A stretch of DNA of 48,184 nt, taken from Verrucomicrobiota bacterium. GTDB lineage: Bacteria; Verrucomicrobiota; Verrucomicrobiia; Limisphaerales; CANJXF01. The position numbers were made by a program, and so were the translations under genes. The DNA lies in assembly GCA_038214755.1 (NCBI GenBank), contig JBBQRQ010000032.1, positions 1 through 48,184 of the forward strand. Reading direction: 5' to 3'. Shown here piece after piece: positions 1 through 35,307 of this stretch (position 1 is its first letter; every line of letters begins with the position of its first letter). The notes beneath the pieces are model-generated. The model was not told where the DNA came from, did no database searches, and worked only from the letters and a program-made list of their open reading frames with translations.

Positions 1-1323
1 GGGCAAGTGTCATCTGATGTTGGTCAGGGAAGTGTCATCTGATCTAGGTCAGTCTGCTACAGTTTTGAGCATGAAAAACTCTCTGAAAAAGATCGGCAGG
101 CGATGGTGTTGGCGGTGCGGCGCGGACAAACGCAGCGGCGCGTGGCCCGTCGGTTTGGGGTGGGGCTGGGACACTTGCAATACTGGCTGGCACGGACTCA
201 CGGACAAAAGCTGGCGCAGGTGGACTGGTCGGATCAATCCCATGCGCCGCGCCTGCAAGGTCGCCAAACCAAGCCCAGCTTGCAACGGCGCGTTCTGTCT
301 TTGCGTCACGAATTGCGGCAGGGCGATCTGGGATTCATCGGGGCACAGGCCATCCATGATGCGCTGCGCTCTGGAAACTCCAAAGCCAGGTTGCCGAGCC
401 TGCGCACCATCGGGCGCATTCTCAAACGGCACGGAGCCTTGGATGGCGTGCGTCGGGTGCGCCGCGCCTCTCCCCCGGCTGGCTGGTATCTGCCGGACGT
501 GGCTGCGGGGCAAGCGGAGCTGGACGCCTTTGATGTCATTGAGGACCTCCCGCTGGAGGCAGGGCCAAAGCTGGATGTGCTTACGACCCGGGCCCTCTGG
601 GGATCGGTTTGTGGCGCGTGGGTCAGTGCCGCTTTGCGTGCGCGTTGGCTCTGCGAAAGGCTGGAAATACACTGGCGGCAGCATGGTTGTCCGACTTATG
701 CCCAGTTCGACAATGATTCGCGCTTTCAAGGAACGCACACGCATCCCGATGTGTTGGGACAGGTCATCCGCTTCTGTCTTTCGTTGGGAGTCACGCCGGT
801 CTTTGCCCCGCCCCGGGAGCATGGGCCGCAAAATCTCAATGAGAGTTTCAACCATCTGTGGCAGCAAAAAGTCTGGCATCGTTTTCACCACGCCAATGCG
901 TCGGCCTTCCAAGCCACCAGTGATCGGTTCGTGGCCGCCTACCAGCAACGTCGCGCCGTTCGCGACGACCAGTCGCCCATCCGGCGAACCTTTCCCAAGG
1001 GATGGAAGCTGGACCTGCAACGTCGTCCCAAAGGCACGGTCATTTATCTGCGTCGCACGGACGAGACGGGAGCGATCCGGGTGCTGGGGCATCGTTGGGC
1101 AGTGGATGCGTTGTGGGTGCATCGTCTGGTGCGAGCCGAGGTGGACTTGGATGCCAATCAAATCCGCTGCTACCGGTTGCGCCGCCGCGCGCTGGAGGAG
1201 CAACCCCTGGCCAAAACTTTCCAATATGTGTTTCCTAAAAAACATTTTCACCCCACCTGACCAACATCAGATGGCACACCGATTTTCACACTTCCTCTGA
1301 CCAACATCAGATGACACTTGCCC
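1..1323 (+). mobile_element. Insertion sequence, IS481-like (rve/DDE), with 27-bp perfect terminal inverted repeats
   Basis: 1-27 GGGCAAGTGTCATCTGATGTTGGTCAG is the exact reverse complement of 1297-1323. Inner copies of the repeat lie at 31-52 and 1257-1278. A single transposase ORF lies between them. The left flank is outside the window, so no target duplication can be tested. Confidence 0.9.
103..1260 (+). CDS. DDE transposase (HTH plus integrase core), IS481-like
   Basis: 385 aa. N-terminal HTH-like segment (QRRVARRFGVG), PSLRTIGRILKRHG, and candidate catalytic motifs FDVIED, QFDNDS and NESFN. Bounded by inverted repeats. Confidence 0.85.
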   Translation: MVLAVRRGQTQRRVARRFGVGLGHLQYWLARTHGQKLAQVDWSDQSHAPRLQGRQTKPSLQRRVLSLRHELRQGDLGFIGAQAIHDALRSGNSKARLPSLRTIGRILKRHGALDGVRRVRRASPPAGWYLPDVAAGQAELDAFDVIEDLPLEAGPKLDVLTTRALWGSVCGAWVSAALRARWLCERLEIHWRQHGCPTYAQFDNDSRFQGTHTHPDVLGQVIRFCLSLGVTPVFAPPREHGPQNLNESFNHLWQQKVWHRFHHANASAFQATSDRFVAAYQQRRAVRDDQSPIRRTFPKGWKLDLQRRPKGTVIYLRRTDETGAIRVLGHRWAVDALWVHRLVRAEVDLDANQIRCYRLRRRALEEQPLAKTFQYVFPKKHFHPT

Positions 1324-1399: not shown

Positions 1400-1621
1400 T
1401 TATTTCAAGAATTCTTCCGTAGTTAGCCCTGCCTGCGCGATGATGGCGCGCAGGGTTCCGCGCGGAATGTCGCCCGGATGGCAGGCAATCATCGTTATTT
1501 TTTTGGTTTGGCGGTTGCTCCAAAATTCATGGCTGCCTTTCTCAGGATGCAGATACTCGAAGCCATTACTGCGCAGACAAGCTACAACGTCGCGGTATTT
1601 GAGCGATGGCAGCCGACTCAT
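1400..1621 (-). CDS. hicA: HicA-family toxin (mRNA interferase)
   Basis: 73 aa with the KGSH motif and the C-terminal HPGDIPRGTLRAIIAQAGLT typical of HicA. ATGA overlap with the upstream hicB. Confidence 0.9.
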   Translation of the reverse strand: MSRLPSLKYRDVVACLRSNGFEYLHPEKGSHEFWSNRQTKKITMIACHPGDIPRGTLRAIIAQAGLTTEEFLK

Positions 1622-1884
1622 GCGGGAACGGGCAGGGAAACCGGCAGGGCGAAATTCATCGACTTGGATTTGCGCTTGAAAACGCGGCGCAGCGCCGCTG
1701 GCAGGGACAGTCTCTCCGACAGATAAACTTCCATGAGAATACGCGCATTGGCCTGGGCCAGTTCCATGGTCTCGGCGCGGGTGCGTCCCTGCACCACGAG
1801 GCCGGGCAGGTCGGGGCTAATCGCCAAAAACCCGCCTTCGTCCAGCGCTTCAACCTTCACGTTCAACACGATTTCGGTTTCCAT
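1618..1884 (-). CDS. hicB: HicB-family antitoxin (short form)
   Basis: 88 aa. EGGFLAISPDLPGLVVQGRTRAETMELA is the HicB N-terminal signature. Adjacent to hicA. Confidence 0.88.
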   Translation of the reverse strand: METEIVLNVKVEALDEGGFLAISPDLPGLVVQGRTRAETMELAQANARILMEVYLSERLSLPAALRRVFKRKSKSMNFALPVSLPVPA

Positions 1885-2016
1885 GCGGCCAAGTTAAGCC
1901 CCGCCGCCGGGTTGTTCAATCAGGAATTCAATGCTTGCAACTGCGCGCGCAGCCATACGAAGTGGCGACGGTTTTCACCGGTGTGGCTATCACGATTGAC
2001 AATATAAAAACCAAAA

Positions 2017-2063
2017 CGCGACTAGAAAGTCGCTTAACCGGCAGGCTGGAAAGCCTGCCCTAC
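2017..2063. repeat. GTAG-type REP-like double hairpin overlapping the cytochrome stop codon
   Basis: GCGACT-agaa-AGTCGC (2018-2033) and GGCAGGCT-ggaa-AGCCTGCC-CTAC (2040-2063). The GTAG on the minus strand contains the TAG stop of the decaheme gene. Confidence 0.7.
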
Positions 2064-3655
2064 AACGTGCGGCCACCCGCATGAAATCCGTGGCAGGTTG
2101 CGCAATCATTTTTGACTCCGCCTTTGGGACTGTGACAGGCAACGCATGTTGATTTCATTGGGAGTAAAATATCTTCGGTTTTTTCGCTTTTCCGGGCGTC
2201 GTGACATTCCGCACACGTCACGTTGGGATGTTTGGAATGATCGAACTTGCCCCGCACAAACCAGCGATCAGGAATTTGCGGTTTCGTAATCGCCGGAACC
2301 ATTTCGCCGCGCGCTTTGACTTCGTGGCAGTAAGCGCAGCCGGGATAAAGCGCGCGCTCGTCCAGGGATTTCTTTGCGTTGCTGAAAAAAATCTGCCGCT
2401 CCAGATTTTCTCCGCTGAACGTTTCCGCCCGCAATATTTTCAACTGCTCTTGCACAAATTTTTTCAATGCGCCCTGTTCGGTCACACCTTTTTTCCGGTC
2501 GAGATCGGCGTATTGAATTTCCAGGCTGCGCAAAAACGCGCGCACTGCTTCGGGATTTCCATGCGGCAACTGAAGGTCAGGATTGCGCTTGTCGAATTGC
2601 AACGCGTGGCACTCGCGGCAATTGGCGGCAAAAGAAATTTTTTGATGAAACGCGCCGGAGGCATCGGGCTTGTGACAATTGGCGCAGTCGAGATGACCGC
2701 CGTTTTTTGTCCGCACCGAATCGCTCAGGTGAACCCGATGATTAAATCTAAGCGTGTCGGGGTCTTGCAAATTTTCCGCGTGAATCTGGAATTCGGGATG
2801 ATCGCTGGCGAATGAATAAAAAACTTTGGTGTAACCGCGCTCCGGCCTCGGCGCGTTGAAAACGATTTGCCCGTGTGGAATGCGAAAATCAAATGCGGCG
2901 GCAGAAAGCATTTTCCCTTTTTCCGCCGACAACTGCATCACGGTGCGGTCCGCGTGGCAACCATTGCAGTTGGCGCTGGCGGGCGCGCGCATCGGTCCGT
3001 GGCCGAGATGTTCGCGATGACACGCGGAGCAGGAAAAATCTTTTACGACATTCGGCTCGTGAAAATTATGTTGAGCGTGACACCGCTGACAGGATTGATC
3101 CAGGCGGGTCATGGCAGTTTCAGGCGGCGAAAAAAGTTTTGCAAATTGGAGCGGTCTCGGATCGGCGCTCATGGCCACGCGCGACCAACCGGCAATGTTG
3201 GTTTCCGCAGCGTGATGGCAATCGGCGCAAGTGAGGATGGCGTGTTGCGCGGAGATTTTTCCCGGAGAAATAAATGGCAACCGCGCCGGACTGTAAAAAG
3301 CGATGAGAAGTCCGGCGATGGTCAATGCCACAACGCACACGGTGAAAACTCCGCGCTTGCCGCGAAGGCTGCGCTTGGGCTGGCAACGGGGTACGGCGCG
3401 GCTGCAAGTTCCATCGGGCATCGGGCCGTGTTCGCACGGGTCGCCAAATTCTTTTGGGCGGGTGCATTTGAAACGTCCTTTGGTTTCGCCTTCACGCAAT
3501 TCGAGCGCCGGTTTGCATTCGAAAGTGGCGCGACAATTCCCTTTTGTATCAGGCCCGATGCGGCAGGGTTTGCCTTCCCTCGCCCAACCGCAGACCCAAT
3601 TTTGATTCGGGCGTTCGTATTGATTGAAATCGAAATCGGGCGAAGGCTCTTTCAT
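2060..3655 (-). CDS. Membrane-anchored decaheme c-type cytochrome with Cys-rich N-terminal domain
   Basis: Ten CxxCH motifs (CADCH, CQRCH, CSACH, CNGCH, CANCH, CRECH, CAYCH, CAECH, CVACH, CATCH). One hydrophobic helix follows KRSLRGKR. Eight Cys lie upstream of the helix. Confidence 0.92.
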   Translation of the reverse strand: MKEPSPDFDFNQYERPNQNWVCGWAREGKPCRIGPDTKGNCRATFECKPALELREGETKGRFKCTRPKEFGDPCEHGPMPDGTCSRAVPRCQPKRSLRGKRGVFTVCVVALTIAGLLIAFYSPARLPFISPGKISAQHAILTCADCHHAAETNIAGWSRVAMSADPRPLQFAKLFSPPETAMTRLDQSCQRCHAQHNFHEPNVVKDFSCSACHREHLGHGPMRAPASANCNGCHADRTVMQLSAEKGKMLSAAAFDFRIPHGQIVFNAPRPERGYTKVFYSFASDHPEFQIHAENLQDPDTLRFNHRVHLSDSVRTKNGGHLDCANCHKPDASGAFHQKISFAANCRECHALQFDKRNPDLQLPHGNPEAVRAFLRSLEIQYADLDRKKGVTEQGALKKFVQEQLKILRAETFSGENLERQIFFSNAKKSLDERALYPGCAYCHEVKARGEMVPAITKPQIPDRWFVRGKFDHSKHPNVTCAECHDARKSEKTEDILLPMKSTCVACHSPKGGVKNDCATCHGFHAGGRTL

Positions 3656-4476
3656 CGCGCACCTCCCGAAAAAGCAAAGACGATCACGATGTGAACAACG
3701 GAAAAAATCAACAGGCTGTAGGTGAGCGGGATGTGCGCGAAGAGCCAGGTCTTCATCGTGATTTGCAATGCGCGCTGATAATCCAATCCGTCTTTTTGCC
3801 GGACGAGGTCAGCGAGTTGTTCAGCGGTGGCGCGCTCCTTTTCGTCGAGAAAACGTTTCAAGTCTCCAATTTTATTGAGGAGCGAATTGAGCGAGCTGCG
3901 GTTTTCAAAGAGATGCGGCCAAAAGTTTTGCCGGCGCTCAAAAAAACTTTTCAGATGACGCAAATAAAAATCGGCGAGCGTGGTCGATTGCGCATCGGGA
4001 ACAGACTTGAGCGCAAGAGTCTCGGCCTGTTCCTGAAAGGAACGGCGAAGGGCGGGAATCCTTTCGTAGAGAACCTCGCCGCCGCGGGTGGTGAGGCGTT
4101 GCGGAATAACGCGCGAGACAAACAACCCAAAAATTCCGCTGAGTGTGACCAGCCAGTAGAGCAGAAAAAGAATGAGGTCGAACCAGCCCGTCGGCATTCG
4201 GAAACGAATGTGCAAAAGAAAAAGCACAACGGTCAACAGCCCGGCATAAATATGAAATTGCAGCCAACCTTCGGAGGTGCCGAGCGGGAGAAACGAAAGT
4301 TTTTTTCGCGCGTTGTAGAGTGACAAAATTACGATCAGGAAAAAAAGCAGCCAGCCGTAAATAAAAATCAGACGCGGAAGGCGCGGCGCGAAAATGAAAT
4401 GTGCGTAAAGCAAGGCGACTGCGAGCAAAGCCACAAAAAGGACGACGAAGCCGCGTCGTTTGACAAAGGAGATCAT
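3652..4476 (-). CDS. Integral membrane protein, putative di-heme cytochrome b / ferric-reductase-like
   Basis: 274 aa with about five hydrophobic helices. Two helices each carry H-x13-H (WLQFHIYAGLLTVVLFLLH; WLFAHIPLTYSLLIFSVVH). ATGA overlap with the cytochrome gene. Confidence 0.72.
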   Translation of the reverse strand: MISFVKRRGFVVLFVALLAVALLYAHFIFAPRLPRLIFIYGWLLFFLIVILSLYNARKKLSFLPLGTSEGWLQFHIYAGLLTVVLFLLHIRFRMPTGWFDLILFLLYWLVTLSGIFGLFVSRVIPQRLTTRGGEVLYERIPALRRSFQEQAETLALKSVPDAQSTTLADFYLRHLKSFFERRQNFWPHLFENRSSLNSLLNKIGDLKRFLDEKERATAEQLADLVRQKDGLDYQRALQITMKTWLFAHIPLTYSLLIFSVVHIVIVFAFSGGAR

Positions 4477-4492
4477 CGTTAAGCATCAAAAG

Positions 4493-4616
4493 AAATCCGA
4501 GATCCGAAATCCGAAAGAAATCCGAAGATCGAAATCTGAATACCGTCCAGCCGAACGCGATTTCGGATTTCGGATTTCGGGCTTCTTTCGGATTTCGGAT
4601 CTCGGTTTTCGGATTT
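4493..4616. repeat. Inverted array of AAATCCG heptamers
   Basis: Left arm is (aaatccg)n and right arm is (cggattt)n, sharing a 23-nt perfectly complementary core CCGAGATCCGAAATCCGAAAGAA. Same family as 18650-18817. Confidence 0.85.
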
Positions 4617-6337
4617 CATCGCTTCAGCCACTCTGCGAAAGAATCAATATCGTTCAAGTTCATTCTTTTCAGAGCGCCGTGCGGACACGCCCGTTCGCAC
4701 GACGGCCCGCCGAATTGTTCAACGCACAAGTCACATTTGGTCGCTTTGATGATCGGTTTCATCTCTTTATCAATCATGATTTGTCCATCGTCGTCGCGAA
4801 TTTCCACCATGCGAATGGCTTCGTACGGACAATTGTTCGCGCAGGTGTTGCAACCGATGCAGGTGCTTTGGTTAATAACAACCTGGCCGCCAAATGCGTC
4901 CCGATGAATCGCGCCCGTCGGACAACCGATCATGCAAACCGGATCAGCGCAATGCATGCAGGCGTTGGCGATCATAATTTTTCCGTTGATCGGCCCGCTG
5001 CGTAAAAAACGCGGATTATTATTGTGGGTCGAGGCGCAGGCACGCACGCAATCGTCGCAACGGGTGCAACGGTCCAGATCAATCACCATCGTTGCGGTGC
5101 CGTTGAAGAAGCGGTTCTCCGCCAAAAACTCCAACATGTCCGGACCGATTTTTGCGCTGGCGTCGATATCGGGTTTCGCGTCTTCCTCCTCGCGAGTCGG
5201 CTCGATCAGCGGGGGCAATTCCGATTCGGGGACGGTCGGGAGAACCACACTTTCGAGAATCGCCGTCGGGATAATCAAAACATGCGTGTAACCAATGACG
5301 CGCAAAGTGTATTGCAGTGGGATCGGCTCCTCATCTTTCTTGCGCCAGTTATGCGCGATTTCCTGAAAGCCGTAGCTCTGGCCGCCGCCGAGATAATTCA
5401 GCGTGCGATTGCCGTGGCCGAATTTCTGGCTGAGCCGAGCGAACCCGGCGCGAATCAAAATCATTCCGTTTGGATAATCGCCCTCCTGCGAGATAACCGG
5501 TTCGCTCTGACTGGCCGCGCCCGATTGGGCGAGCCGTTTGTAATCGCCCGACCAATCGTAATCGCCATAGGTGCCGAAGATGGTTTGGTCCATTACTTTT
5601 TGCAGTTGTTCGCCGGTGAGTTGCTGAAAAATGGGAATCTCGCGCAAGTGCGAAGCCAAGGCGCGCGCGCGATAAATCTTATCAATGTGATCGCGCAACG
5701 TGCTGTCGTAGCGCATCAGATCGCGCAAACCTTGCCAGCGGATCTCCAACAGTTCCGTCTCGTTTGTTTCGGCGAAAACCGTTGCGGTGCGCGGCATCCG
5801 GCTCAGCGCGGCGATCTCTCCAAAAAATTCTCCCGCCTCGATGGTCGCGGTTTTGTATTCGCTCAAAATGCGCGGAATGTCCTGGAGAAAAACTTTTACC
5901 TCGCGGTTCCGATCTTTTCGCGCCGCCACCCGCGAATCTTTTTTCAACTCGGAACCTTTCCGCGTCTCCGGTTCGTTCGAGTTGGACCACAGTTGCGCGA
6001 GGGACCGGAAAATTCCTTTCTTCTGCGAAACCGCACGACCCAGGATGGCCGCAGGCAAATCCGTCAGCGCCACGCGCACGCTACCAGACATAATCATGAA
6101 GGCGGAAGTTCCGTAGTCGCCGGCGCGCACCACGATTTCTCCACGGCGAAATTTTCTGATGCGCGTGTCGTGCTGTAAAATGTCGCGCAAGGAAATGCGT
6201 TTGGGAAATTTGCTCGCGTCCATTTCGCGGAACGGCGCGAGCGTGAGAAGCCGGTCCACTTCGGACTCCGCCATTTCTGGATCGAACGAAGCGTCCCAGC
6301 GTCCGGGGCGATCTAAGATGGGTGAAGCAGCGGCCAT
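4616..6337 (-). CDS. Cyclic-nucleotide-binding domain protein fused to a DmsB/NrfC-like 4x[4Fe-4S] domain
   Basis: Canonical cNMP cassette FFGEIAALSRMPRTATV and a second, degenerate cNMP domain. Cys motifs CTRCDDCVRAC, CMHCADPVCMIGCP, CIGCNTCANNCP and CDLC...CERACP. Start set at ATG 6337 because the ORF-track extension to 6454 is repeat DNA. Confidence 0.88.
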   Translation of the reverse strand: MAAASPILDRPGRWDASFDPEMAESEVDRLLTLAPFREMDASKFPKRISLRDILQHDTRIRKFRRGEIVVRAGDYGTSAFMIMSGSVRVALTDLPAAILGRAVSQKKGIFRSLAQLWSNSNEPETRKGSELKKDSRVAARKDRNREVKVFLQDIPRILSEYKTATIEAGEFFGEIAALSRMPRTATVFAETNETELLEIRWQGLRDLMRYDSTLRDHIDKIYRARALASHLREIPIFQQLTGEQLQKVMDQTIFGTYGDYDWSGDYKRLAQSGAASQSEPVISQEGDYPNGMILIRAGFARLSQKFGHGNRTLNYLGGGQSYGFQEIAHNWRKKDEEPIPLQYTLRVIGYTHVLIIPTAILESVVLPTVPESELPPLIEPTREEEDAKPDIDASAKIGPDMLEFLAENRFFNGTATMVIDLDRCTRCDDCVRACASTHNNNPRFLRSGPINGKIMIANACMHCADPVCMIGCPTGAIHRDAFGGQVVINQSTCIGCNTCANNCPYEAIRMVEIRDDDGQIMIDKEMKPIIKATKCDLCVEQFGGPSCERACPHGALKRMNLNDIDSFAEWLKR

Positions 6338-6345
6338 ATCAGGAG

Positions 6346-6517
6346 AACGCGGAATGCGGAATGCGAAACGCGGAATGAAGGAGGCAGAACCTTGGACTGC
6401 GGCGGCATGACGCCGCTTTGGTTGCATCGTCGCATTGGATGAAAGCGTCCGCATTTTTGAGAGCGTTCTCTGGCAAGCGGAGGTGAAGGAAAAACGGCGT
6501 CATGCCGCCGCAGTCCA
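6346..6517. repeat. Heptamer run plus inverted REP-like pair (TGGACTGCGGCGGCATGACGCCG)
   Basis: GCGGAAT-type heptamers at about 6346-6377. 23-bp perfect inverted repeat at 6393-6415/6495-6517. 6391-6419 is identical to 11691-11719. Confidence 0.85.
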
Positions 6518-6573
6518 TGGAACGTCGCAACCCACAGTGATGCGGGACGGCTACGATGGTTGTTTGAATTGAA

Positions 6574-7869
6574 TTACGCATCGAGGACCAAATCGCTTTT
6601 CGGTTTGCAAATGCAGGTCAGGCACGAGCCTTCCTCGGAAATCGCGCCGTGCTCGGTCACGTAATCGACGCTGCCGGATTTGATCGCGACCAGGCACGAA
6701 CCGCAGTTCCCCGCGCGACAACCCGAATCGATTTTAATTCCGAGTTCATCCGCCAAATCCAGCAGCGAACCCAACTGCGGTTTCCACGCGGAAATTTTTC
6801 CAGATCGGCTGAATCGGATTTGAAAAGTCGGCGCGCCGGGTTCGACCACCACAACGGGTGCGATTTTTTTGACGGTGGCCGGACCGAATGCCTCGAAGAA
6901 AACACTGGAATCCGGGACGCCCCACGCGGTGAGTTCCTCAGTGATGCTGTTCATAAACGGCCCGGGGCCGCAGAGATAAAATTCAAAATTGTTCGAGGGC
7001 AAAAGTTGTTTCATCAAAGTGACGCTGACCCGCTCGGCATGTTGAAAGTCGCGGCCGACTTGTTCGGAGTCTCGCGGCTTGCTGAAGCAAACATGGAGAT
7101 GAAAATTTTCGTGGTCCGCCGCCAGTTTCAGCAAATGTTCACGCTGAATAAATTCGTCGCCATTGCGCGCGCCGAAGAAAAACCAGATTTCGCGCTTCGA
7201 CCCGCTTTCCAAAATCGCGTTGGCCATGCTCAACATCGGAGTGATCCCGACCCCGCCGGAAATGAGAACGACGGGCGTTGGTTTTTGCAGATCGAGAAAA
7301 AAATGTCCGGTTGGCGCTTTGACATTGAGGATGTCGCCTACTTTCAGTTTGTCGCAAAAAAGTTCGGAGGCGAGACCGTGCGGAATTCCGGTCTGGTCCG
7401 GCGGCGCGAGGGCTTTTTTAATGGTGACGCGATAAAAATCTTTGCGATGACAATCGGACAGCGAGTAGCAGCGGACGACTGGTTTATCGCGGCCGGGAAC
7501 ATCGAGTTGGAACGTCAGATATTGTCCGGGCTTGAAAGCGGGCAGCGCCTTGCCGTCGTGCGGCGCGAGATAGAATGAGTAAACGTCCTGGCACTCCTTG
7601 ATCTTTTTTGCGATTTGAAATTTTCGGATTCCATTCCAGAGGGACTTGTTTTGTTCGACTTCCCGCAATTGCGACGCGGCGGCCTTGATTTGGAGCTTGA
7701 GCCGCTCCCGGGAAAGGCGGCGTTGCTCGCGCTCAAAAAAAACGGCGCGAGCCGAGGAATAAAGCATCAGCAGAATTTTCAGGAGCAGCGCGCCGATCAA
7801 AATACTTCCGAGAGTCAGGCCGATATTTCCGGCGAAAGCAGAATGAAGCCTCTGGATAATGGATTGCAT
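6574..7869 (-). CDS. Membrane-anchored FAD/NAD(P)H-binding oxidoreductase with C-terminal 2Fe-2S ferredoxin (FNR/PaaE/Hcr-like)
   Basis: Motifs RCYSLS, GGVGITP, YLCGP, EAFG and CRAGNCGSC...CLTC. N-terminal hydrophobic helix followed by a charged helical linker. Confidence 0.9.
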   Translation of the reverse strand: MQSIIQRLHSAFAGNIGLTLGSILIGALLLKILLMLYSSARAVFFEREQRRLSRERLKLQIKAAASQLREVEQNKSLWNGIRKFQIAKKIKECQDVYSFYLAPHDGKALPAFKPGQYLTFQLDVPGRDKPVVRCYSLSDCHRKDFYRVTIKKALAPPDQTGIPHGLASELFCDKLKVGDILNVKAPTGHFFLDLQKPTPVVLISGGVGITPMLSMANAILESGSKREIWFFFGARNGDEFIQREHLLKLAADHENFHLHVCFSKPRDSEQVGRDFQHAERVSVTLMKQLLPSNNFEFYLCGPGPFMNSITEELTAWGVPDSSVFFEAFGPATVKKIAPVVVVEPGAPTFQIRFSRSGKISAWKPQLGSLLDLADELGIKIDSGCRAGNCGSCLVAIKSGSVDYVTEHGAISEEGSCLTCICKPKSDLVLDA

Positions 7870-7899
7870 TTGGATGGAATATTGTTTACCAAGCCGCGC

Positions 7900-9072
7900 G
7901 TGCTGAGTAAATATTTTCCTTCGCGAATTTTCGTTCTCGACGGCCTGTTTCTGAAAATATTTTTGGGTTTTTTCGCGATGATTGCGCCCCTTGTTGCGCA
8001 GGAAATAAACGAAAATATTTCGTCCGCAAAATTTCTCGGAATGAATTCATGCAGCTCTTCCAGTTGCCACGGCGGGGCCGCCAAACAGCATGACGAATGC
8101 GGTATCTGGTCGAAACAGGATTTTCACTCGCGCGCATTTGCCACGCTGACGACTGCGCGTTCCGCGCGAATGGCCGAAGTTTTGCAGATCGATTTGCCGG
8201 TTAAAAATCCGAGTTGCACGGTATGTCACGCGCCTTTCCAAACGGTGCCTGCCGCGCAGCAAGCGAAACCTTTGGATATTACGGCGGGCGTCTCCTGCGA
8301 GAGTTGTCACGCGCCCGCCGAGAACTGGCTGCGCAGTCACACGCGACCGGATTTCACACACGCGGATCGCATTGCCGCCGGAATGCGCGATTTAAAAAAC
8401 CTTTACGTGCGCGCCAACACTTGCGTCGCGTGTCACCAAAATGTTTCGAGCAATTTGCTGGCGGCGGGTCATCCCGAATTGATTTTTGAATTGGATGGGC
8501 AGGCGGTCACCGAGCCGAAACATTGGCGCGAACCGACCAATTGGAGTGGCGCGCAGACATGGCTCATCGGGCAAGCGGTCGCGCTTCGTGAAGTCAGTTG
8601 GGAACTTTCCAAAGCGCCGAACGACAAAAAGCTCCGCGAAAAATTTGAAGGGTTGCGCTGGCTTTTAGAAAAACTCCCGGCGGAAATAAATTCAGATTCT
8701 TTCAACAGCCAGGCGAGCAGCGATCAGAGCAACGCGGGAAAGGTTCAGCAAAAAAGTGACGAACTTGCGCGCAACGTGGCAGCGATGAATTGGTCGGGAG
8801 AATTGACTAAACAGATTTTGTCCACGCTCGCCAACACGAGCGGGGATTTTAAATCGAAGGAATTAAGTCGATCTGCTCAAGCACGCCGCGCCGAGCGTCT
8901 GGTACTGGGATTGGACCGACTGGTCCTTGCTTCCGACAAAAAATGGAAGATCCATCTTGATTCTGAAATCAACGAACTTTTTGGCAAGGTGCAGTCGCTC
9001 CCCGATTTTGAGCCAACAAAATTTGCCGGCGCCTTGGAAAAGTTTTCCAGCAAGCTGCGCGACTCACGCTGA
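7900..9072 (+). CDS. Secreted multiheme cytochrome c (c554/c552-like, four heme sites)
   Basis: CSSSSCH, CTVCH, CESCH and CVACH, plus AGHP. Signal-peptide-like N-terminus ending LVAQE. Start (GTG 7900) is uncertain. Confidence 0.82.
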   Translation: MLSKYFPSRIFVLDGLFLKIFLGFFAMIAPLVAQEINENISSAKFLGMNSCSSSSCHGGAAKQHDECGIWSKQDFHSRAFATLTTARSARMAEVLQIDLPVKNPSCTVCHAPFQTVPAAQQAKPLDITAGVSCESCHAPAENWLRSHTRPDFTHADRIAAGMRDLKNLYVRANTCVACHQNVSSNLLAAGHPELIFELDGQAVTEPKHWREPTNWSGAQTWLIGQAVALREVSWELSKAPNDKKLREKFEGLRWLLEKLPAEINSDSFNSQASSDQSNAGKVQQKSDELARNVAAMNWSGELTKQILSTLANTSGDFKSKELSRSAQARRAERLVLGLDRLVLASDKKWKIHLDSEINELFGKVQSLPDFEPTKFAGALEKFSSKLRDSR

Positions 9073-10470
9073 CTTTGTGCCGGACGGCGGAATTTTCTCT
9101 GCCAGCTCCCCAGCAGGATAGGTCCAGATTTCCGCAAGCGTCGGATGGTAATGCGGCATTTTCGCCAGTTCATGCACCGTCATTTGTTTGTGCATGGCCG
9201 CGACAATTTCGTGAATCAATTCCCCGCCCATCGGCCCAACGCAACTGCCGCCGATGATTTCGCCCGTCGTCGGGTTGGCCAATAATTTTACAAAGCCATC
9301 CTGGGAAATCATCAGCATGGATTTCCCGTGGTCGCGGAACGGATAACTCGCGACGAGATATGGAATATTTTTTGCGCGCGCTTCTTTTTCCGTCAGGCCA
9401 ACGCTGGCGATTTGCGGCTCGGTAAATACGATGCTCGTGAGCAAACGGTAATCGATGGTTTTTTTCTTCTGGGGATGCGCGATGTTGTGCGCGGCAATTT
9501 CTCCCTGCTGAATCGCAATATGGACTATCTCGTACGGCCCTGTGCAGTCGCCCGCGGCGTAAATATGCGGAGCGGTGGTTTGCATCTGAGGGTTGGTCAC
9601 GATGCGAAAGTACTCGGTCGTTACACCCGCTTTTTCCAAATCGAGACCATCCGTATTCGGTAAACGGCCGAGCGCGAAAAGAATTTCTTCCGCCAAAACT
9701 TTTTTTGCTTCGCCTTTGTGCTGAAACGAAACGCATTTGAACTTTCCTTTTTTTGAAGCGTCGAGCAGCCGGGTGTCGCTGAGAACTTCCATGCCTTCGC
9801 GGCGAAAAACTTTCGCCAATTCTTCCGCGGCGTCTGCGTCGAAATCGCGCAGCAGATGTTCGCTGCGCTGGATCAACGTGACCTGCACGTCCAGCCGTAG
9901 AAAAAATTGCGCGAACTCCACCGCCACCGCGCCTCCGCCTAAAACGATCAACGACCTGGGCAGAACTTTTAGCGACACAGCGTCGTCGCTGTTCAGGAAG
10001 CCCACTTTTTTCAGATAAGGGAGGGGAGACGGCGCGGTGCGAGAACCGGTGCTGAGAATAAAATTTTTGGCACGAAGTGATTTTCCATTATCAAGAGCCA
10101 CGGTGTGAGGATCGGTGAAGCGCGCGTTGGCCCGGATAAATTTGAATTTTCCGCTTTTGAGCTGGGCGTGTCGATACTCGGCGAAGTCACGAATCATCGC
10201 ATTTTTCCGCGCCATAATTTTCGTGAAATCGAAATGCGCGTGTGGAATTTTCAACCCCAAAACTCCCGCGCTCCGGGCCAGATGCAAAACGTCCGAGGCA
10301 TAGAGCAACGCCTTCGTCGGCATGCAACCGCGCAAAATGCAAAGACCGCCGACCTCCTCCCCGCCTTCGACGACGACGGTTTTCAAACCTGCGCCCGCCG
10401 CCGTGCGCGCCGCCGCATAACCGCCGCTGCCGCCGCCGATGATGGCGACGTCAAAATCAAATTTCTTCAC
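9064..10470 (-). CDS. Class-I pyridine nucleotide-disulfide oxidoreductase (dihydrolipoamide dehydrogenase-like)
   Basis: GGGSGG, GGLCILRGCMPTK, GGGAVAVE, IYAAGD and HYHPTLAE. Confidence 0.9.
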   Translation of the reverse strand: MKKFDFDVAIIGGGSGGYAAARTAAGAGLKTVVVEGGEEVGGLCILRGCMPTKALLYASDVLHLARSAGVLGLKIPHAHFDFTKIMARKNAMIRDFAEYRHAQLKSGKFKFIRANARFTDPHTVALDNGKSLRAKNFILSTGSRTAPSPLPYLKKVGFLNSDDAVSLKVLPRSLIVLGGGAVAVEFAQFFLRLDVQVTLIQRSEHLLRDFDADAAEELAKVFRREGMEVLSDTRLLDASKKGKFKCVSFQHKGEAKKVLAEEILFALGRLPNTDGLDLEKAGVTTEYFRIVTNPQMQTTAPHIYAAGDCTGPYEIVHIAIQQGEIAAHNIAHPQKKKTIDYRLLTSIVFTEPQIASVGLTEKEARAKNIPYLVASYPFRDHGKSMLMISQDGFVKLLANPTTGEIIGGSCVGPMGGELIHEIVAAMHKQMTVHELAKMPHYHPTLAEIWTYPAGELAEKIPPSGTKSA

Positions 10471-10576
10471 GAAGCAAAGATGGAATGGCGCGACAAACTT
10501 TCAATCATCATGTTGTTACACCGTTAATAGAAACCCACTCGCTTTCCTGGCCGCTTTCGCGATTATTGCAGATGAA

Positions 10577-11377
10577 ATGAAGAGCCGCTCTCGAGTCGTA
10601 TTCGTTTTGTCACTCGCCATTGCGATATGCGTTTCAGGCATCTATGCGTTGTTGTCGCATGAGCCGACTTATCAAGGCAGAAGACTGAGTAGGTGGTTGA
10701 GAGACTTCGATGACGAACCGCCCGAAAAATGTGCGCTCGCGGCAAACGCTGTGAGAAACATCGGAACCAATGCCGTGCCTTTTCTGGTGAAGCGTCTTCA
10801 ACATACTTCGCCCGACAGATATTCGCGGTTCACAAAATTAAAACAAAATATCTGGGAACTTTGGAACAAATATTCCCCGATCAAAATGACGTTGCGTCGT
10901 CCACCAGATCCTCGCCGTGAGGCGCTCGCCGGTCTCGACGCACTCGGTCCGGATGCCAAAGATGCAATACCAGCCTTGGAAAAATTACTTCATGAGGATC
11001 CACCCGACCCAGCGGCTCTTTATGTGATTGCTCGAATTGGGGAGCAAGGTTTGCCTCTCATAACCCAATCGTTGACCAACTCGGAGAAAGTGATCCGTCT
11101 TGAAGCGCGCGTTTGTTTGGAAATGATTAAAACCAAGTCAGCGATGTTATTCCCGAAATTCGAAACGGAACCTGAGTCTTCAGATTACAGGCGACGAATT
11201 TGCGAGTTTAATTCGCGCACATTGCGCGAGGCGTTCAAAGACTACCGCGCCCAACACCCGGAACAATTTGATGCAAACGGAGGGCCGGTATCATCACCAC
11301 CGCCCGAGATGCCGCCCGCTATAGGAACCAATGGGGTCAACCAGGGGAATTATATTCCAGCTTCTACTTTTGAGTAG
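10577..11377 (+). CDS. Hypothetical membrane-anchored HEAT-repeat-like protein
   Basis: N-terminal TM segment, EPTYQGRRLSRWL, IGTNAVPFLVKRL and LGPDAKDAIPALEKLL (HEAT-like). Confidence 0.7.
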   Translation: MKSRSRVVFVLSLAIAICVSGIYALLSHEPTYQGRRLSRWLRDFDDEPPEKCALAANAVRNIGTNAVPFLVKRLQHTSPDRYSRFTKLKQNIWELWNKYSPIKMTLRRPPDPRREALAGLDALGPDAKDAIPALEKLLHEDPPDPAALYVIARIGEQGLPLITQSLTNSEKVIRLEARVCLEMIKTKSAMLFPKFETEPESSDYRRRICEFNSRTLREAFKDYRAQHPEQFDANGGPVSSPPPEMPPAIGTNGVNQGNYIPASTFE

Positions 11378-11380
11378 GCC

Positions 11381-11410
11381 GACTACCGCGCCTTTTGCAA
11401 ATGTGCCCAT
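11381..11410 (-). pseudogene. 5' remnant of a PemK/MazF toxin gene
   Basis: An overlapping frame reads MGTFAKGAVV, resembling MazF-like starts (MxxFxKGDVVxVPFP), then runs into the antisense of the HEAT gene. Confidence 0.5.
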
Positions 11411-11592
11411 GCAGCATCTTCCTCGGGTCGATTCCAATCCTGCGCCAGCGCGGTTTCACTCAGAATCGCCGTCTCGGTGGAATCATCCTCCAAAATTGTC
11501 ACCAGCGCTCGTCGCGTTGTGGGCAGATGGATTTCTTCGAGAAGCCGAACCGCTCCTCGTTCATCAATCACAGCTTCAAGCGTTTTCAACAT
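11383..11592 (-). CDS. Small antitoxin-like protein (DUF104/AF2212-like N-terminus)
   Basis: 69 aa. MLKTLEAVIDERGAVRLLE...LSETALAQDWNRPEEDAAWAHL resembles antitoxins found upstream of PemK/MazF toxins. Confidence 0.7.
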   Translation of the reverse strand: MLKTLEAVIDERGAVRLLEEIHLPTTRRALVTILEDDSTETAILSETALAQDWNRPEEDAAWAHLQKAR

Positions 11593-11653
11593 GTCAGAAG
11601 TCTAACCAGTTTACGATTGAGGGCAAGCCGGAGCTTCGAATGTTGTATTCTCG

Positions 11654-11857
11654 GGGTGTGATTAAAAGCCGGTGAGGCTAGATTTGGTTTCTTGGACTGC
11701 GGCGGCATGACGCCGCTTTTCCTGCACGTTACGCGATGGAGAAAGTGCGCAAAATGAAGAACCTTTCCGGCTTTTCCACGGTGCAGCCAAAGCGGGGACG
11801 TGTCCCCGCAGTCCAAAATAACATCGGTTCCAACCTCACCCACTTTTAATCACACCC
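11654..11857. mobile_element. MITE (204 bp) with 24-bp TIR and 9-bp target-site duplication
   Basis: TIR GGGTGTGATTAAAAG(cc/tg)GGTGAGG at both ends. Direct repeat GTATTCTCG at 11645-11653 and 11858-11866. Internal REP pair at 11691-11719/11789-11816. Confidence 0.9.
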
Positions 11858-11930
11858 GTATTCTCGATTGCGAAAAAGGCCCACGCCCAAAATGCGCGCG
11901 AGAACAATTATTTATCCGCGGGAGCCAGCG

Positions 11931-13295
11931 CTACTTCCCGATGCAAAATTGGCTGAAAATGGAATCCAACAAATCTTCGGTGGTAGTTTTTCCAACGATT
12001 TCTCCCACGGCATTTACGGCGATGCGCAAATCCATCGCCGCCAGTTCGAGCGCGATATTTTCTCGAAGCGCGTTGATCGTTTCGCGCGTCCCGACCTTCG
12101 CTCGTCTCAGCGCATCCTGATGGCGCGAGTTGATCATCACCTGCAACATTTCCGCGCGAATCTCTCCAACCCAAACCAAATCCTTGATGGCATCTTTCAA
12201 CGTCTCAATTCCCTTTCCGCTCAGGCAGCAAACGTCCACCGTTTTCAAGCCGTTCGGCAAAAATAGTTTTTGCGGCAGATCGATTTTGTTGCGAACGAGG
12301 ATTCGTTTCTTGCTGGAGAATTCCGCCAGATAATTTTCGTCAGCAAGAGTAAGCGGCTCGGCATGATCGAGGACGTGCAAAATCAATTCCGCTCTGGCCA
12401 ACGTTGCGCGACTGCGACGAATTCCCTCGATTTCAATTTCATCGCGCGACTCGCGCAAACCGGCTGTGTCCACAAAAATCACCGGCAAGCCGCGAACGTT
12501 CGCCGTCTCCTCGATGGTGTCGCGCGTCGTGCCGGGGATGGCGGAAACAATGGCGCGATCGTGTCCGAGAAGTTGGTTAAGCAGACTCGATTTTCCAGCG
12601 TTGGGGCGACCGACAATGGCGGCGCGAATTCCGCGACGCAAAATTTGTCCTTCGTTTGCAGTACGCAAAAGTTCTTCCATGAACGCGACGGCATTTTCGA
12701 GTCGCTGAAGCAATTGCTCTTTCGTGTTGGGCGGAATGTCTTCCTCGGGAAAATCAATGTGGGCTTCGACGTGCGCCAGAATTTTCACCATGTCATCGCG
12801 CAGCGCATTGATGCGCTGGGAAAGTTTCCCGGCCAATTGTTCGTTGGCCGCCGTGAGCGCCAGGTCCGTGCGCGCGGCGATCAGGTCCGCCACGGCTTCG
12901 GCCTGGGTGAGATCAATTCTGCCATTGAGAAAAGCGCGTTTGGTAAATTCTCCCGGCATGGCCAGGCGCGCGCCATTTTCCAGCACGACATCCAAAACCA
13001 TTTTGGCCGGGAGCAACCCGCCGTGGCATGTGATCTCGACCACATCTTCGCGCGTCAAAGTTCGCGGCGCGCGCAGAACGGAGAGCAAAACTTCATCAAT
13101 TGTTTTTCCGTCGCGCAAAATTTTTCCGTAATGAATGGTGTGCGTCGGCGCTAGCGATGGTTTCAAAGAAGATTTGCCGACCGGGAAAAAACTTTTGTCG
13201 CCAATGTCCAGCGCCTGCGCGCCGGAAATGCGGATGACCGCCAATCCGCCTTCACCGAGAGGCGTGGCGATGGCGGCAATGGTGTCGTCAAACAT
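11931..13295 (-). CDS. mnmE: tRNA uridine-5-carboxymethylaminomethyl(34) synthesis GTPase MnmE
   Basis: DTIAAIAT, GRPNAGKSS, GTTRD, DTAG, NKID and C-terminal FCIGK. Confidence 0.98.
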   Translation of the reverse strand: MFDDTIAAIATPLGEGGLAVIRISGAQALDIGDKSFFPVGKSSLKPSLAPTHTIHYGKILRDGKTIDEVLLSVLRAPRTLTREDVVEITCHGGLLPAKMVLDVVLENGARLAMPGEFTKRAFLNGRIDLTQAEAVADLIAARTDLALTAANEQLAGKLSQRINALRDDMVKILAHVEAHIDFPEEDIPPNTKEQLLQRLENAVAFMEELLRTANEGQILRRGIRAAIVGRPNAGKSSLLNQLLGHDRAIVSAIPGTTRDTIEETANVRGLPVIFVDTAGLRESRDEIEIEGIRRSRATLARAELILHVLDHAEPLTLADENYLAEFSSKKRILVRNKIDLPQKLFLPNGLKTVDVCCLSGKGIETLKDAIKDLVWVGEIRAEMLQVMINSRHQDALRRAKVGTRETINALRENIALELAAMDLRIAVNAVGEIVGKTTTEDLLDSIFSQFCIGK

Positions 13296-33965: not shown

Positions 33966-34814
33966 CTATTTTTCTTTCAACTCCACTTCGCCGTTCCATT
34001 GCGGCGGGGGAGGTTCTTGGCGGAAGTGATCGATCTGATGGAGGAAGAACTCCGCTGGACCATCTTTGGGCGCAAGATCAAGGACACGCCGGAACGCATT
34101 TTCCGCGTGAGCAAAATTCCCGTTCTGAAAAAGGCGCAAAGCTTCGGCGAAGACTTCGCGCATGGGTCGGGAGTTCTCTGCGTTATCAGGCCAGTCGATG
34201 AGTTGATGGACCTTGACGGTTCGTTCAAATCCTTTGAGTCGGAATGGGCCGAGGGAGCGGGTCACCAGTTGCCCCTCAATGCCCGCCAAAGTTTCACCGG
34301 TGATGAGCAGATTCGTTCCGAGATATTTGTTCAGTCCTTCCATACGCGATGCAAGGTTGATGTTTTCGCCGAGCGCTCCGTAGTTGACCCGCGTCGTGCT
34401 GCCAAAGTTTCCGACGTTGGCGACACCGGTGTGAAGACCAATGCGCGTGATAAGCTGCTGATTATTCATGTACTGAGGCGGCAGAGCGCGGAAACGCAAC
34501 GCGGCTTCACAGGCGCGCAGTTGGTGATCGGCCTGCAAATCAGGCGCGTTCCAGAAAGCGTAAATGGCGTCGCCGATATATTGGAGGACGGTTCCGTCGG
34601 TGCGATGGATGCATTGGGTAACGACGTTCTCAAAATACCGGTTCATCTGTAACGCGAGATCATCCGAATCCATTCCTTCGGAGATGGTGGTGAAATTGGC
34701 AATATCACTGAAGAGGATAGTAAGGGTTTCTTTTTTTGCGCCGGGTTTGAGCAGTTCTTTGTTGCTGGAAAATTTTTTAACCAGTTTGGGTGACAGCAAT
34801 TTGACCAAGGTCAT
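33966..34814 (-). CDS. Class III nucleotide (adenylate/guanylate) cyclase, apparently lacking its N-terminal sensor
   Basis: FSDIANFT, IGDAI, RIGLHTG...VGNFGS, NLASRMEG and LKG, with a TPR-like tail. Begins directly at the LSPKLV linker. Confidence 0.82.
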   Translation of the reverse strand: MTLVKLLSPKLVKKFSSNKELLKPGAKKETLTILFSDIANFTTISEGMDSDDLALQMNRYFENVVTQCIHRTDGTVLQYIGDAIYAFWNAPDLQADHQLRACEAALRFRALPPQYMNNQQLITRIGLHTGVANVGNFGSTTRVNYGALGENINLASRMEGLNKYLGTNLLITGETLAGIEGQLVTRSLGPFRLKGFERTVKVHQLIDWPDNAENSRPMREVFAEALRLFQNGNFAHAENAFRRVLDLAPKDGPAEFFLHQIDHFRQEPPPPQWNGEVELKEK

Positions 34815-35307
34815 TGCTCAACACAATTTCACCAACGAGCAGCGTCACGATCGTGAGTCCGTCCTCGGCCACATCAAGATGAAATTCCGTCCCGCGAATA
34901 GCGCCAGATGCCAGCGGCGTCCGAAACTCCAGCTCCGTCGGTTTTTCCCGGCTGAAAAAGTAGGCAGCTCCGGAGTTCACATTTACTACGGGTTGGTTTC
35001 CAGCGCGAGAGGGAGGCTGCAACTGCACAGTGGTCAGTTCGTTGACTCGCAAGACGGTAAGATTGGAGAGGCGGATGGTAGCGCGACTGCGGGCGCCAGT
35101 CCGCAGACGGTCCCCCACGCGCAAGAGTTGATTGGTTTGACCCGCTGCCCAATCCCGACCGTCAGTCCGGGAAACTTCAACCTTTCCTTCAATCGTCAAA
35201 AGGATCGAATCGTTTTTACCTTTCGGCTGCGAAGTTTCAGCCGATGCGGTTTCAACCACGAGGAACGTGAGAAGGCAGGTTCCTAAAGTTGAGAGAAAGC
35301 GATTCAC
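34777..35307 (-). CDS. FecR-domain secreted protein, probably 3'-truncated
   Basis: Signal peptide, IEGKVEV, GDRLRTG, TPLASGAIRGTEF and GEIVL. Stops before the usual end of the domain. Confidence 0.75.
   Translation of the reverse strand: MNRFLSTLGTCLLTFLVVETASAETSQPKGKNDSILLTIEGKVEVSRTDGRDWAAGQTNQLLRVGDRLRTGARSRATIRLSNLTVLRVNELTTVQLQPPSRAGNQPVVNVNSGAAYFFSREKPTELEFRTPLASGAIRGTEFHLDVAEDGLTIVTLLVGEIVLSNDLGQIAVTQTG

Follow-up and report, generated by a model that had tools for sequence, protein, structure and literature searches.

The closest described relative of the genes considered here is the ptdABCDEFG cluster of a 2023–24 preprint (bioRxiv 10.1101/2023.11.21.568154). In the passages covered, this lists a pentaheme cytochrome (PtdA), a porin (PtdB), an FAD/NAD(P) oxidoreductase (PtdC), a tetraheme cytochrome (PtdD), a cyclic nucleotide (cNMP)/4Fe-4S protein (PtdE), a ferric-reductase-like membrane protein (PtdF) and a decaheme cytochrome (PtdG), and calls their function completely unknown. 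We have analysed a five-gene set in a 48,184-nt stretch of DNA (referred to throughout as the window) from Verrucomicrobiota bacterium GCA_038214755.1 (contig JBBQRQ010000032.1; genome label G000, 97% complete), in which counterparts of PtdC, PtdD, PtdE, PtdF and PtdG are all present and ptdF and ptdG follow ptdE. An earlier note on this DNA held that no characterised system has such an architecture, and this still stands, although the architecture had already been named in the preprint, where it is uncharacterised.

We identify the window set as ptdCDEFG because four loci with the A–G order and heme counts (L060, L073, L107 and L109) carry homologues of all five window genes (PtdE 52–58% identical); it should be noted that the match to ptd rests on gene order, domains and heme counts, and not on sequence identity to the preprint's own proteins. 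The set differs from ptdABCDEFG in that no PtdA or PtdB was found here, the A-B-C-D-E-F-G order is not kept, and ptdD is divergent with a CxxxxCH first heme motif. Its outer module is made up instead of a double-HbpS protein, a ten-heme/LVIVD cytochrome of 1,300 aa and a probable barrel that is unrelated to the porin. Two 4Fe-4S clusters are counted for PtdE in the preprint whereas the window sequence has four, and its passages covered here name marine Proteobacteria, Nitrospirales and Planctomycetes as hosts without listing Verrucomicrobiota, and propose no cNMP gating. Our literature search found this preprint as the sole description of the cluster; the journal version and supplements, which that search did not cover, may list Verrucomicrobiota or more subunits. 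We therefore class the window cluster not as a full ptdABCDEFG member but as a variant, centred on Verrucomicrobiota, in which the ptd core goes with another outer module.

Three other groups of systems share parts of this design. NOX, SpNOX and Fre-MsrQ resemble it in that an NAD(P)H/FAD domain of the FNR type supplies a two-His-pair membrane domain (PMC5676040, PMC8238504; passages covered), and PtdF carries the two His-x12/14-His pairs in transmembrane (TM) helices 3 and 5 given there as the NOX criterion (PMC5676040), while MsrQ-like clusters are described as taking an NAD-binding domain or a NuoF-like protein as input (PMC8238504). In contrast to NOX, PtdF has five TM helices and not six, the dehydrogenase is on a separate gene and not fused, a [2Fe-2S] and four [4Fe-4S] clusters are interposed, cNMP domains are present, and the acceptor is a multiheme c cytochrome. 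Neither sequence nor fold searches gave a significant match to NOX, and NOX was not among the PtdF fold-search matches, an absence that does not exclude likeness. In its predicted working the cluster resembles a NOX that has been split, given an Fe-S relay and provided with a porin-cytochrome exit, but its five helices and unfused dehydrogenase set it apart from the NOX family. Porin-cytochrome conduits, including MtrAB and a verrucomicrobial porin/eight-heme complex (PMC5615132, passages covered), have a barrel gene beside a multiheme gene and a proposed role in extracellular electron transfer, an arrangement that the weakly supported barrel candidate and its multiheme neighbour here may share. 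The large cytochrome here differs from that complex in having ten motifs plus LVIVD repeats in ~1,300 aa, not eight motifs (a distinction made by description, not sequence), and its partner is an inner module predicted to be fed by NAD(P)H, not a quinol oxidase. The DmsB/NrfC/HydN subunits share the four-cluster Cys layout of PtdE (HycB3/HycB4 of HDCR and FHL HycB, E 3e-21 to 3e-15, with HycB3/HycB4 the best solved relatives at E 3e-21), but PtdE is fused to tandem cNMP domains. As the earlier note had said, no molybdoenzyme or hydrogenase large subunit was found in the 33 window proteins scanned or in the recurrent neighbour families examined, and these contain no linked catalytic subunit or NrfD/PsrC anchor partner either (NCBIfam scores were far below cut-off).

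Gene organisation and conservation

The five genes and their main features are as follows, with coordinates in the window.

7900..9072, plus strand: PtdD-like secreted tetraheme cytochrome, c554-type with a helical C-terminal domain (Pfam PF13435); divergent, start inferred
6574..7869, minus strand: PtdC-like reductase, 431 aa; TM anchor, FAD_binding_6 (PF00970), NAD_binding_1 (PF00175) and Fer2 (PF00111) with a C-terminal [2Fe-2S]
4616..6337, minus strand: PtdE-like protein, 573 aa; two cNMP-fold domains and a four-cluster DmsB/HydN-type ferredoxin domain (Pfam, NCBIfam)
5786..5824, minus strand: phosphate-binding cassette of cNMP domain A (G173, E174, R183, T184), with an intact Gly-Glu...Arg-Thr
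4685..5068, minus strand: four [4Fe-4S] cysteine groups of PtdE (C424–C551), from the cysteine layout
3652..4476, minus strand: PtdF-like five-helix membrane protein, 274 aa; H-x13-H pairs in TM3 and TM5, and a cytoplasmic helical bundle between TM4 and TM5
2060..3655, minus strand: PtdG-like anchored decaheme cytochrome c, 531 aa; 10 CxxCH after one hydrophobic helix (about residues 102–120)
3383..3592, minus strand: PtdG eight-cysteine domain, N-terminal to the anchor; C-x-x-GP-x3-G-x-C occurs twice, and the cysteines are conserved in 71–72 of 72

The five open reading frames of the earlier note are present at these positions with conserved motifs, and the anatomy of the wire it described, made of a reductase, a cNMP/Fe-S protein, a di-histidine membrane protein and two multiheme cytochromes, is borne out by the domains and conserved motifs. 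Its account of the tetraheme cytochrome needs a correction, as the heme motifs are three CxxCH and one CxxxxCH, and it overlooked the second cNMP-fold domain in PtdE and the eight conserved Cys in the PtdG N-terminus.

A scan of species genomes returned 263 relatives of the cNMP/Fe-S gene, the best 80 of which were fetched (mostly from Verrucomicrobiota, with records labelled Planctomycetota, Acidobacteriota, Alphaproteobacteria and Myxococcota too). The partners that the earlier note expected to co-occur do recur around these 80 ptdE relatives, as tblastn detected ptdF in 75 loci, ptdG in 73, ptdC in 71 and ptdD in 66 (most misses being contig ends; L046, L047, L070 and L075 are real exceptions in lacking ptdD), and the E-F-G order is kept in 73. 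Of the 8,000 candidates that a protein search scored, 4,864 were matches, and many of these may share just one domain; the top 120 are full-length with 66–90% identity. In a FastTree phylogeny of 82 PtdE sequences, the window falls in a 65-row clade (support 100) in which ptdD is divergent upstream of ptdC where seen and PtdA is never present. The cluster is real, conserved and uncharacterised.

A predicted path from NAD(P)H to the cell surface

We consider it highly probable that these proteins form a wire across the envelope, presumably as a complex. At its inner end, an anchored PtdC would oxidise cytoplasmic NAD(P)H and pass electrons through FAD to the [2Fe-2S] cluster; the RCYS, GxGxTP, CG and ExFG motifs and the four 2Fe-2S Cys are kept in 70 of 70 PtdC homologues, and the hydrophobic N-terminal segment in 52. 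The four [4Fe-4S] clusters of PtdE would then relay electrons from PtdC to PtdF, and here the 16 Cys are invariant in 77 aligned sequences with one gap at the last Cys. Alignment of homologues places the ptdE start at ATG 6337 and not at 6454, where REP-like inverted repeats account for a false longer start.

PtdF is predicted to be a di-heme b protein. The four histidines of H75-x13-H89 and H248-x13-H262 are kept in 138, 138, 137 and 138 of 138 aligned homologues (the family has 313 representatives at E up to 1e-30), and the structure model has a pLDDT of 96. The pairs should lie at opposite ends of two parallel helices according to the positive-inside topology, which suits a full membrane crossing from an inner heme b (H75/H248) to an outer heme b (H89/H262). 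Weak Pfam matches below threshold were seen among the 138 members to DUF4405 (49), cytochrome b561 (17) and ferric reductase (15, best E 2.6e-4), and a PDB sequence search with PtdF gave nothing significant. A fusion protein, P0271, joins a four-cluster domain (probability 99) to a full PtdF-like domain (probability 97) and so ties E to F. A further histidine in the cytoplasmic bundle, H188 (window 3913–3915 region), is possibly an extra metal or heme ligand; of the close homologues 72 of 73 retain it, and of the distant ones 106 of 138.

From PtdF, electrons would pass to the ten hemes of PtdG, which has 10 CxxCH motifs against at most two in 10,000 shuffles. Nine further invariant His are candidate distal ligands, and the ten hemes are probably bis-His. 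The eight-cysteine domain that precedes the anchor has no Pfam, NCBIfam, PDB or Atlas match and is predicted to be cytoplasmic by the positive-inside rule. It is missing from all eight reductase-less loci where ptdG was seen and present in all 12 reductase-bearing loci checked, and this suggests a link to PtdC, with the pattern amounting to one evolutionary event.

PtdD gave a profile match to cytochrome c554 (1bvb, E 2e-15), and its first heme motif is CxxxxCH in 55 of 57 divergent copies. The window PtdD is 27–32% identical locally and 21–24% overall to the co-oriented copies with four CxxCH in the A–G loci. The listed ptdD start at 7615 overlaps the reductase gene, and the start is more probably at GTG 7900, which gives a signal-peptide-like N-terminus. 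Together with the HbpS-like protein of the outer module, PtdD may act as a side acceptor or catalyst.

That NAD(P)H is the inner electron pool is indicated by three unrelated NAD(P)H-type flavoproteins which have been recruited to the family. Besides the FNR-type PtdC, one is found in a natural fusion in which a Pyr_redox/Rubredoxin_C/BFD flavoprotein is joined to a PtdF-like segment (probability 90) directly before a ten-heme gene, and the other in genome G135, where a PtdE-like protein is fused to a 2Fe-2S/4Fe-4S domain and adjoins a NuoE/NuoF-like gene (the D-F-G genes are on a different contig). This second pair is possibly a cNMP-regulated diaphorase.

L095 (G039:C22) 8469-12010, minus strand: NirB-like flavoprotein and PtdF-like di-histidine segment, then a ten-heme gene and a Tll0287-like gene
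L114 (G135:C49) 7704-12276, minus strand: NuoE/NuoF-like fusion, then a 2Fe-2S/4Fe-4S-cNMP-cNMP-four-cluster fusion

Two exchangeable outer modules

Clustering of neighbouring genes revealed three recurrent genes in place of PtdA and PtdB, encoding a probable barrel of 750–850 aa (32 loci), a secreted double-HbpS protein (25 loci) and the ten-heme/LVIVD cytochrome of ~1,300 aa (23 loci). All three directly follow ptdG in a close relative of the window (L005/L097). In G000 the outer-module genes are on a separate contig, C149, where the probable barrel gene adjoins the multiheme gene as it does in relatives.

G000:C149 213-854 (L081): IS200-like (possibly REP-associated) transposase
G000:C149 974-2578: double-HbpS protein
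G000:C149 2821-5076: probable barrel
G000:C149 5524-7574: large multiheme cytochrome, cut by the contig end
Window 1972..2086, minus strand: ptdG 3′ end and downstream DNA, repeated at 94% in the first 115 bases of C149

A search of the assembly did not recover the remainder of the large cytochrome. Run X1 (which may be the source sample) contains a short, diverged copy of window 2043–2134 at a depth of 19.8 compared to 20.6 for ptdG, and from this equal depth of both copies a minor strain is a less fitting explanation than a rearrangement inside a single genome. PtdA was not found in G000 with a query that finds it in five of 151 genomes, nor was PtdB, to which the C149 barrel candidate has no similarity (best E 0.21). 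PDB searches gave nothing significant for either the barrel candidate or the large multiheme cytochrome.

When 151 genomes of the class were profiled, ptdF was found in 15 (12 families). The double-HbpS and large multiheme genes are both present in the same 12 of these, and PtdA is present in the remaining three as well as in G150, where there is a cluster of each type. A partial match to PtdA was also seen in one more genome, which has no ptdF. Each inner module is paired with one of two exchangeable outer modules, with the qualification that kin genomes are not independent. The earlier note had electrons moving between NAD(P)H and periplasmic hemes. The anatomy of that path is supported, but the hemes are apparently not the end of the chain, because every ptdF genome also has an outer multiheme module or PtdA, and the ten hemes of PtdG would instead pass electrons on to the barrel and large cytochrome.

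Outward transfer from NAD(P)H would spend both reductant and membrane potential, as in NOX. This cost would be a reason for a switch, and fits a signal-triggered export of reductant better than an energy-conserving respiration. Bulk flow in the inward direction is argued against as no periplasmic low-potential donor enzyme is linked. The final acceptor is most likely extracellular (Fe(III) or humic quinones, for example), with heme or nitric oxide (NO) at the HbpS-like or c554-like proteins as alternatives.

The cyclic nucleotide-binding domains and neighbouring cyclases

A structure model of PtdE matched the tandem CNB domains of PKA-R/PKG (Foldseek E 2e-15). The key residues of a cNMP pocket (Gly and Glu in beta-6, and the cassette Arg and Thr, as listed in the passages covered of PMC6052114) are matched by domain A, in which the Gly, Glu, Ala and Arg are invariant in 77 of 77 and 120 of 120 homologues (49–90% identity). 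Domain B retains the Gly and Glu but has lost the Arg, and no Arg motif is seen in 119 of 120 homologues (those where domain B was located). Both pockets appear intact in most copies of the divergent clade that is without reductase genes.

Elsewhere, cNMP domains regulate effectors that are fused to them. No DNA-binding, kinase or cyclase output domain was found in PtdE here, and because it has no other output domain the simplest role for pocket A would be the regulation of the ferredoxin domain, with a cyclic nucleotide bound at this single intact pocket switching the flow of electrons. The conserved pocket motif and the gene neighbourhood are our grounds for regarding control of the relay in this manner as likely.

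The earlier note had also suggested a search for class III cyclases in the neighbourhood, and a CHASE2 class III cyclase is indeed found in 24 of the 80 loci, mostly with FecR and a second barrel-like gene. Given 166 matches in 192 Mb of 41 relatives, about 1.1 would be expected in the fetched DNA. Four cyclase types are present in 21, 2, 1 and 1 loci (one locus has two) and these loci fall in two clades, which indicates that recruitment took place independently a few times. Both metal aspartates and the Asn/Arg pair are retained in the main type.

Within the window, 25 kb from the cluster, a gene for a FecR domain breaks off after 176 codons and leads, in another frame, into an overlapping gene for the catalytic half of a CHASE2-type cyclase, a junction that looks like a deletion or misassembly. 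Similar cyclase matches in genomes of the same genus are in 670–700 aa frames, and there are two longer cyclase frames elsewhere in G000.

Window 33966-34814, minus strand: cyclase
Window 33966-35307, minus strand: region of the cyclase and cut FecR gene

Weighing the alternatives

Joining the wire with control by cNMP, we arrive at an NAD(P)H-fed, quinone-independent electron exporter which is switched by a cyclic nucleotide, and which we regard as evenly poised between being right and wrong as a whole. A number of observations weigh against it, beginning with the input. From the nine loci of the divergent clade (L092–L094 and L100–L105; PtdE ~30% identical) ptdC is missing, which means that NAD(P)H does not enter by way of this gene in all cases, and no close PtdC was found in the eight reductase-less genomes searched (the best match is 32% identical and unlinked). 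A NuoEF-type input shared by all reductase-less clusters was rejected, as the partner is missing in eight of nine of these genomes (all but G135). L105 is also without ptdE within 20 kb, and despite long flanks L024 and L059 have no ptdC upstream, L013 has no ptdF or ptdG, and L075 has no ptdG downstream.

Further observations of this kind bear on the membrane crossing, the exit and the signal. The PtdF fold matches are within the background for helical bundles, including those to cytochrome b561 (Z 7.6, rmsd 3.5, 140 aligned) and the designed diheme 4D2 (Z 8.1, rmsd 2.7, 103 aligned). The barrel assignment is weak, depending on Pfam Alginate_exp in three of 13 (best E 7e-4) and Atlas neighbours, and a crude count of amphipathic strands (two against a shuffle mean of three) gave no support for a barrel. 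As the cyclase-bearing loci are kin, the enrichment is overstated, and no cyclase was seen in the flanks fetched for the six closest loci, of which the window is one; the window cyclase itself lacks the sensor part (the first 386 residues of its L023 relative are missing). Adenylyl cyclases usually carry Lys at the purine-specifying position. The commonest cyclase (21 loci; e.g. L015 16029–18200) has His at this position, and with a non-canonical neighbouring cyclase the nucleotide is possibly not cAMP.

The same outward wire might be ungated, with the cNMP-fold domains serving as a docking scaffold or binding another ligand. Such a role would suit the missing Arg of domain B, the long insertion with low model confidence in domain A, the failure of Pfam to find a cNMP domain in the P0271 fusion, and the 56 of 80 loci which show no cyclase. 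Against it stand the invariance of the Gly-Glu-Ala-Arg of domain A across homologues of 49–90% identity, the intact-looking pockets of most divergent-clade copies, and the four cyclase types and the ABC transporter with a cNMP domain that recur nearby; we think an ungated wire unlikely. Flow might also be inward, in a redox sensor where outer and periplasmic hemes report the outside redox state to the Fe-S clusters, altering cNMP binding or partner contacts, and the reductase does no more than reset the sensor. The nine loci without a reductase are in keeping with this, as are the recurrent signalling domains (FHA on PtdC and PtdE forms, a kinase fusion, and the FecR/CHASE2 modules), but PtdE here lacks an output domain of the DNA-binding, kinase or cyclase kind, a sensor that needs a barrel and about 24 c-type hemes spread over three proteins would be costly, and unrelated NAD(P)H flavoproteins have been recruited repeatedly. 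We judge a sensor improbable.

A quinone-linked respiratory branch, in which PtdF exchanges electrons with menaquinone like NrfD/PsrC or cytochrome b and PtdE is NrfC-like, would account for the DmsB/NrfC/HydN-like Fe-S domain and for the weak matches of 17 of 138 PtdF members to prokaryotic cytochrome b561. Also in its favour, Fe(III) reduction and the presence of MK-7 are described for two isolates of Limisphaera (PMC13608581, passages covered), which may or may not carry the cluster. Against this, PtdF has no NrfD/PsrC family match in the Pfam and NCBIfam scans, the positions predicted for its His pairs would suit a full crossing, and PtdF-like domains are fused directly to Fe-S and flavin domains, and we hold a quinone branch to be likewise improbable.

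Returning to the gated exporter, the evidence taken together may be extended into a broader proposal, which we offer tentatively and as possible rather than probable. This is of a widespread modular exporter that bypasses the quinone pool, where a nucleotide (possibly not cAMP) from a surface-sensing FecR/CHASE2 module binds the ferredoxin protein and opens an NAD(P)H-to-outside wire. The input (FNR-, NuoEF- or NirB-type) and the output (PtdAB, or barrel/ten-heme-LVIVD/HbpS) would be swappable, and an undescribed eight-cysteine metal site on the cytoplasmic end of PtdG would link it to the FNR-type input.

Neighbouring genes and other observations

Long PtdE forms, and PtdC too, can contain inserted FHA domains, and in one case a protein kinase domain is joined to a PtdE-like protein (P0272–P0281 and P0285; L060 7193–8869; L080 7898–9931); these variants hint at a possible control by phosphorylation. 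Another recurrent neighbour of the cluster is an ABC transporter that has a cNMP-binding domain at its C-terminus (L055 16439–18679 and about six other loci).

A dihydrolipoamide-dehydrogenase-like gene (9064–10470), a flanking disulfide reductase, was rejected as a member of the system as it is found in one of the 80 loci. Near ptdG there is a transposase-like open reading frame (window 103–1260, plus strand) whose ends match the ends of several other contigs, and just after ptdG a small HicB-like one (window 1618–1884, minus strand); both are named by appearance, with no Pfam match. REP-like inverted repeats are present between ptdE and ptdF (window 4492–4610) and between ptdC and ptdE (6390–6520), and the first 20 bases of the latter have 12 copies in the genome. 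Other multiheme genes in G000 are on contigs C44, C61 and C128 with 5, 7 and 5 CxxCH, respectively, and the C128 gene, near a weak Fe-S match, may belong to an alternative complex III (a name given by inference).

CRP, FNR and Fur boxes in 53 ptdC/ptdD intergenic regions numbered 4, 4 and 1 compared to shuffle means of 3.4, 4.0 and 0.1, with no clear enrichment, and a scan for sigma-70 promoters was at chance level. No iron transporter was found among the recurrent neighbour families annotated (some clusters only; many others look like opposite-strand open reading frames), and iron assimilation is for this reason without support from the neighbourhood.

Significance

The chains for extracellular electron transfer that are known to us take their electrons from quinol, and their control is exerted at the level of gene expression. 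If our reading is correct, electron flow would here be controlled in a new way, in a chain which is fed directly by NAD(P)H and which a cyclic nucleotide gates allosterically. The cluster now has named handles in the one intact pocket (R183), the four predicted heme histidines, the eight-cysteine domain and the second outer module that replaces PtdAB. For the abundant Verrucomicrobiota of soils, lakes and sediments, it would provide a route for the reduction of iron or humics, or for a surface-triggered release of reductant.

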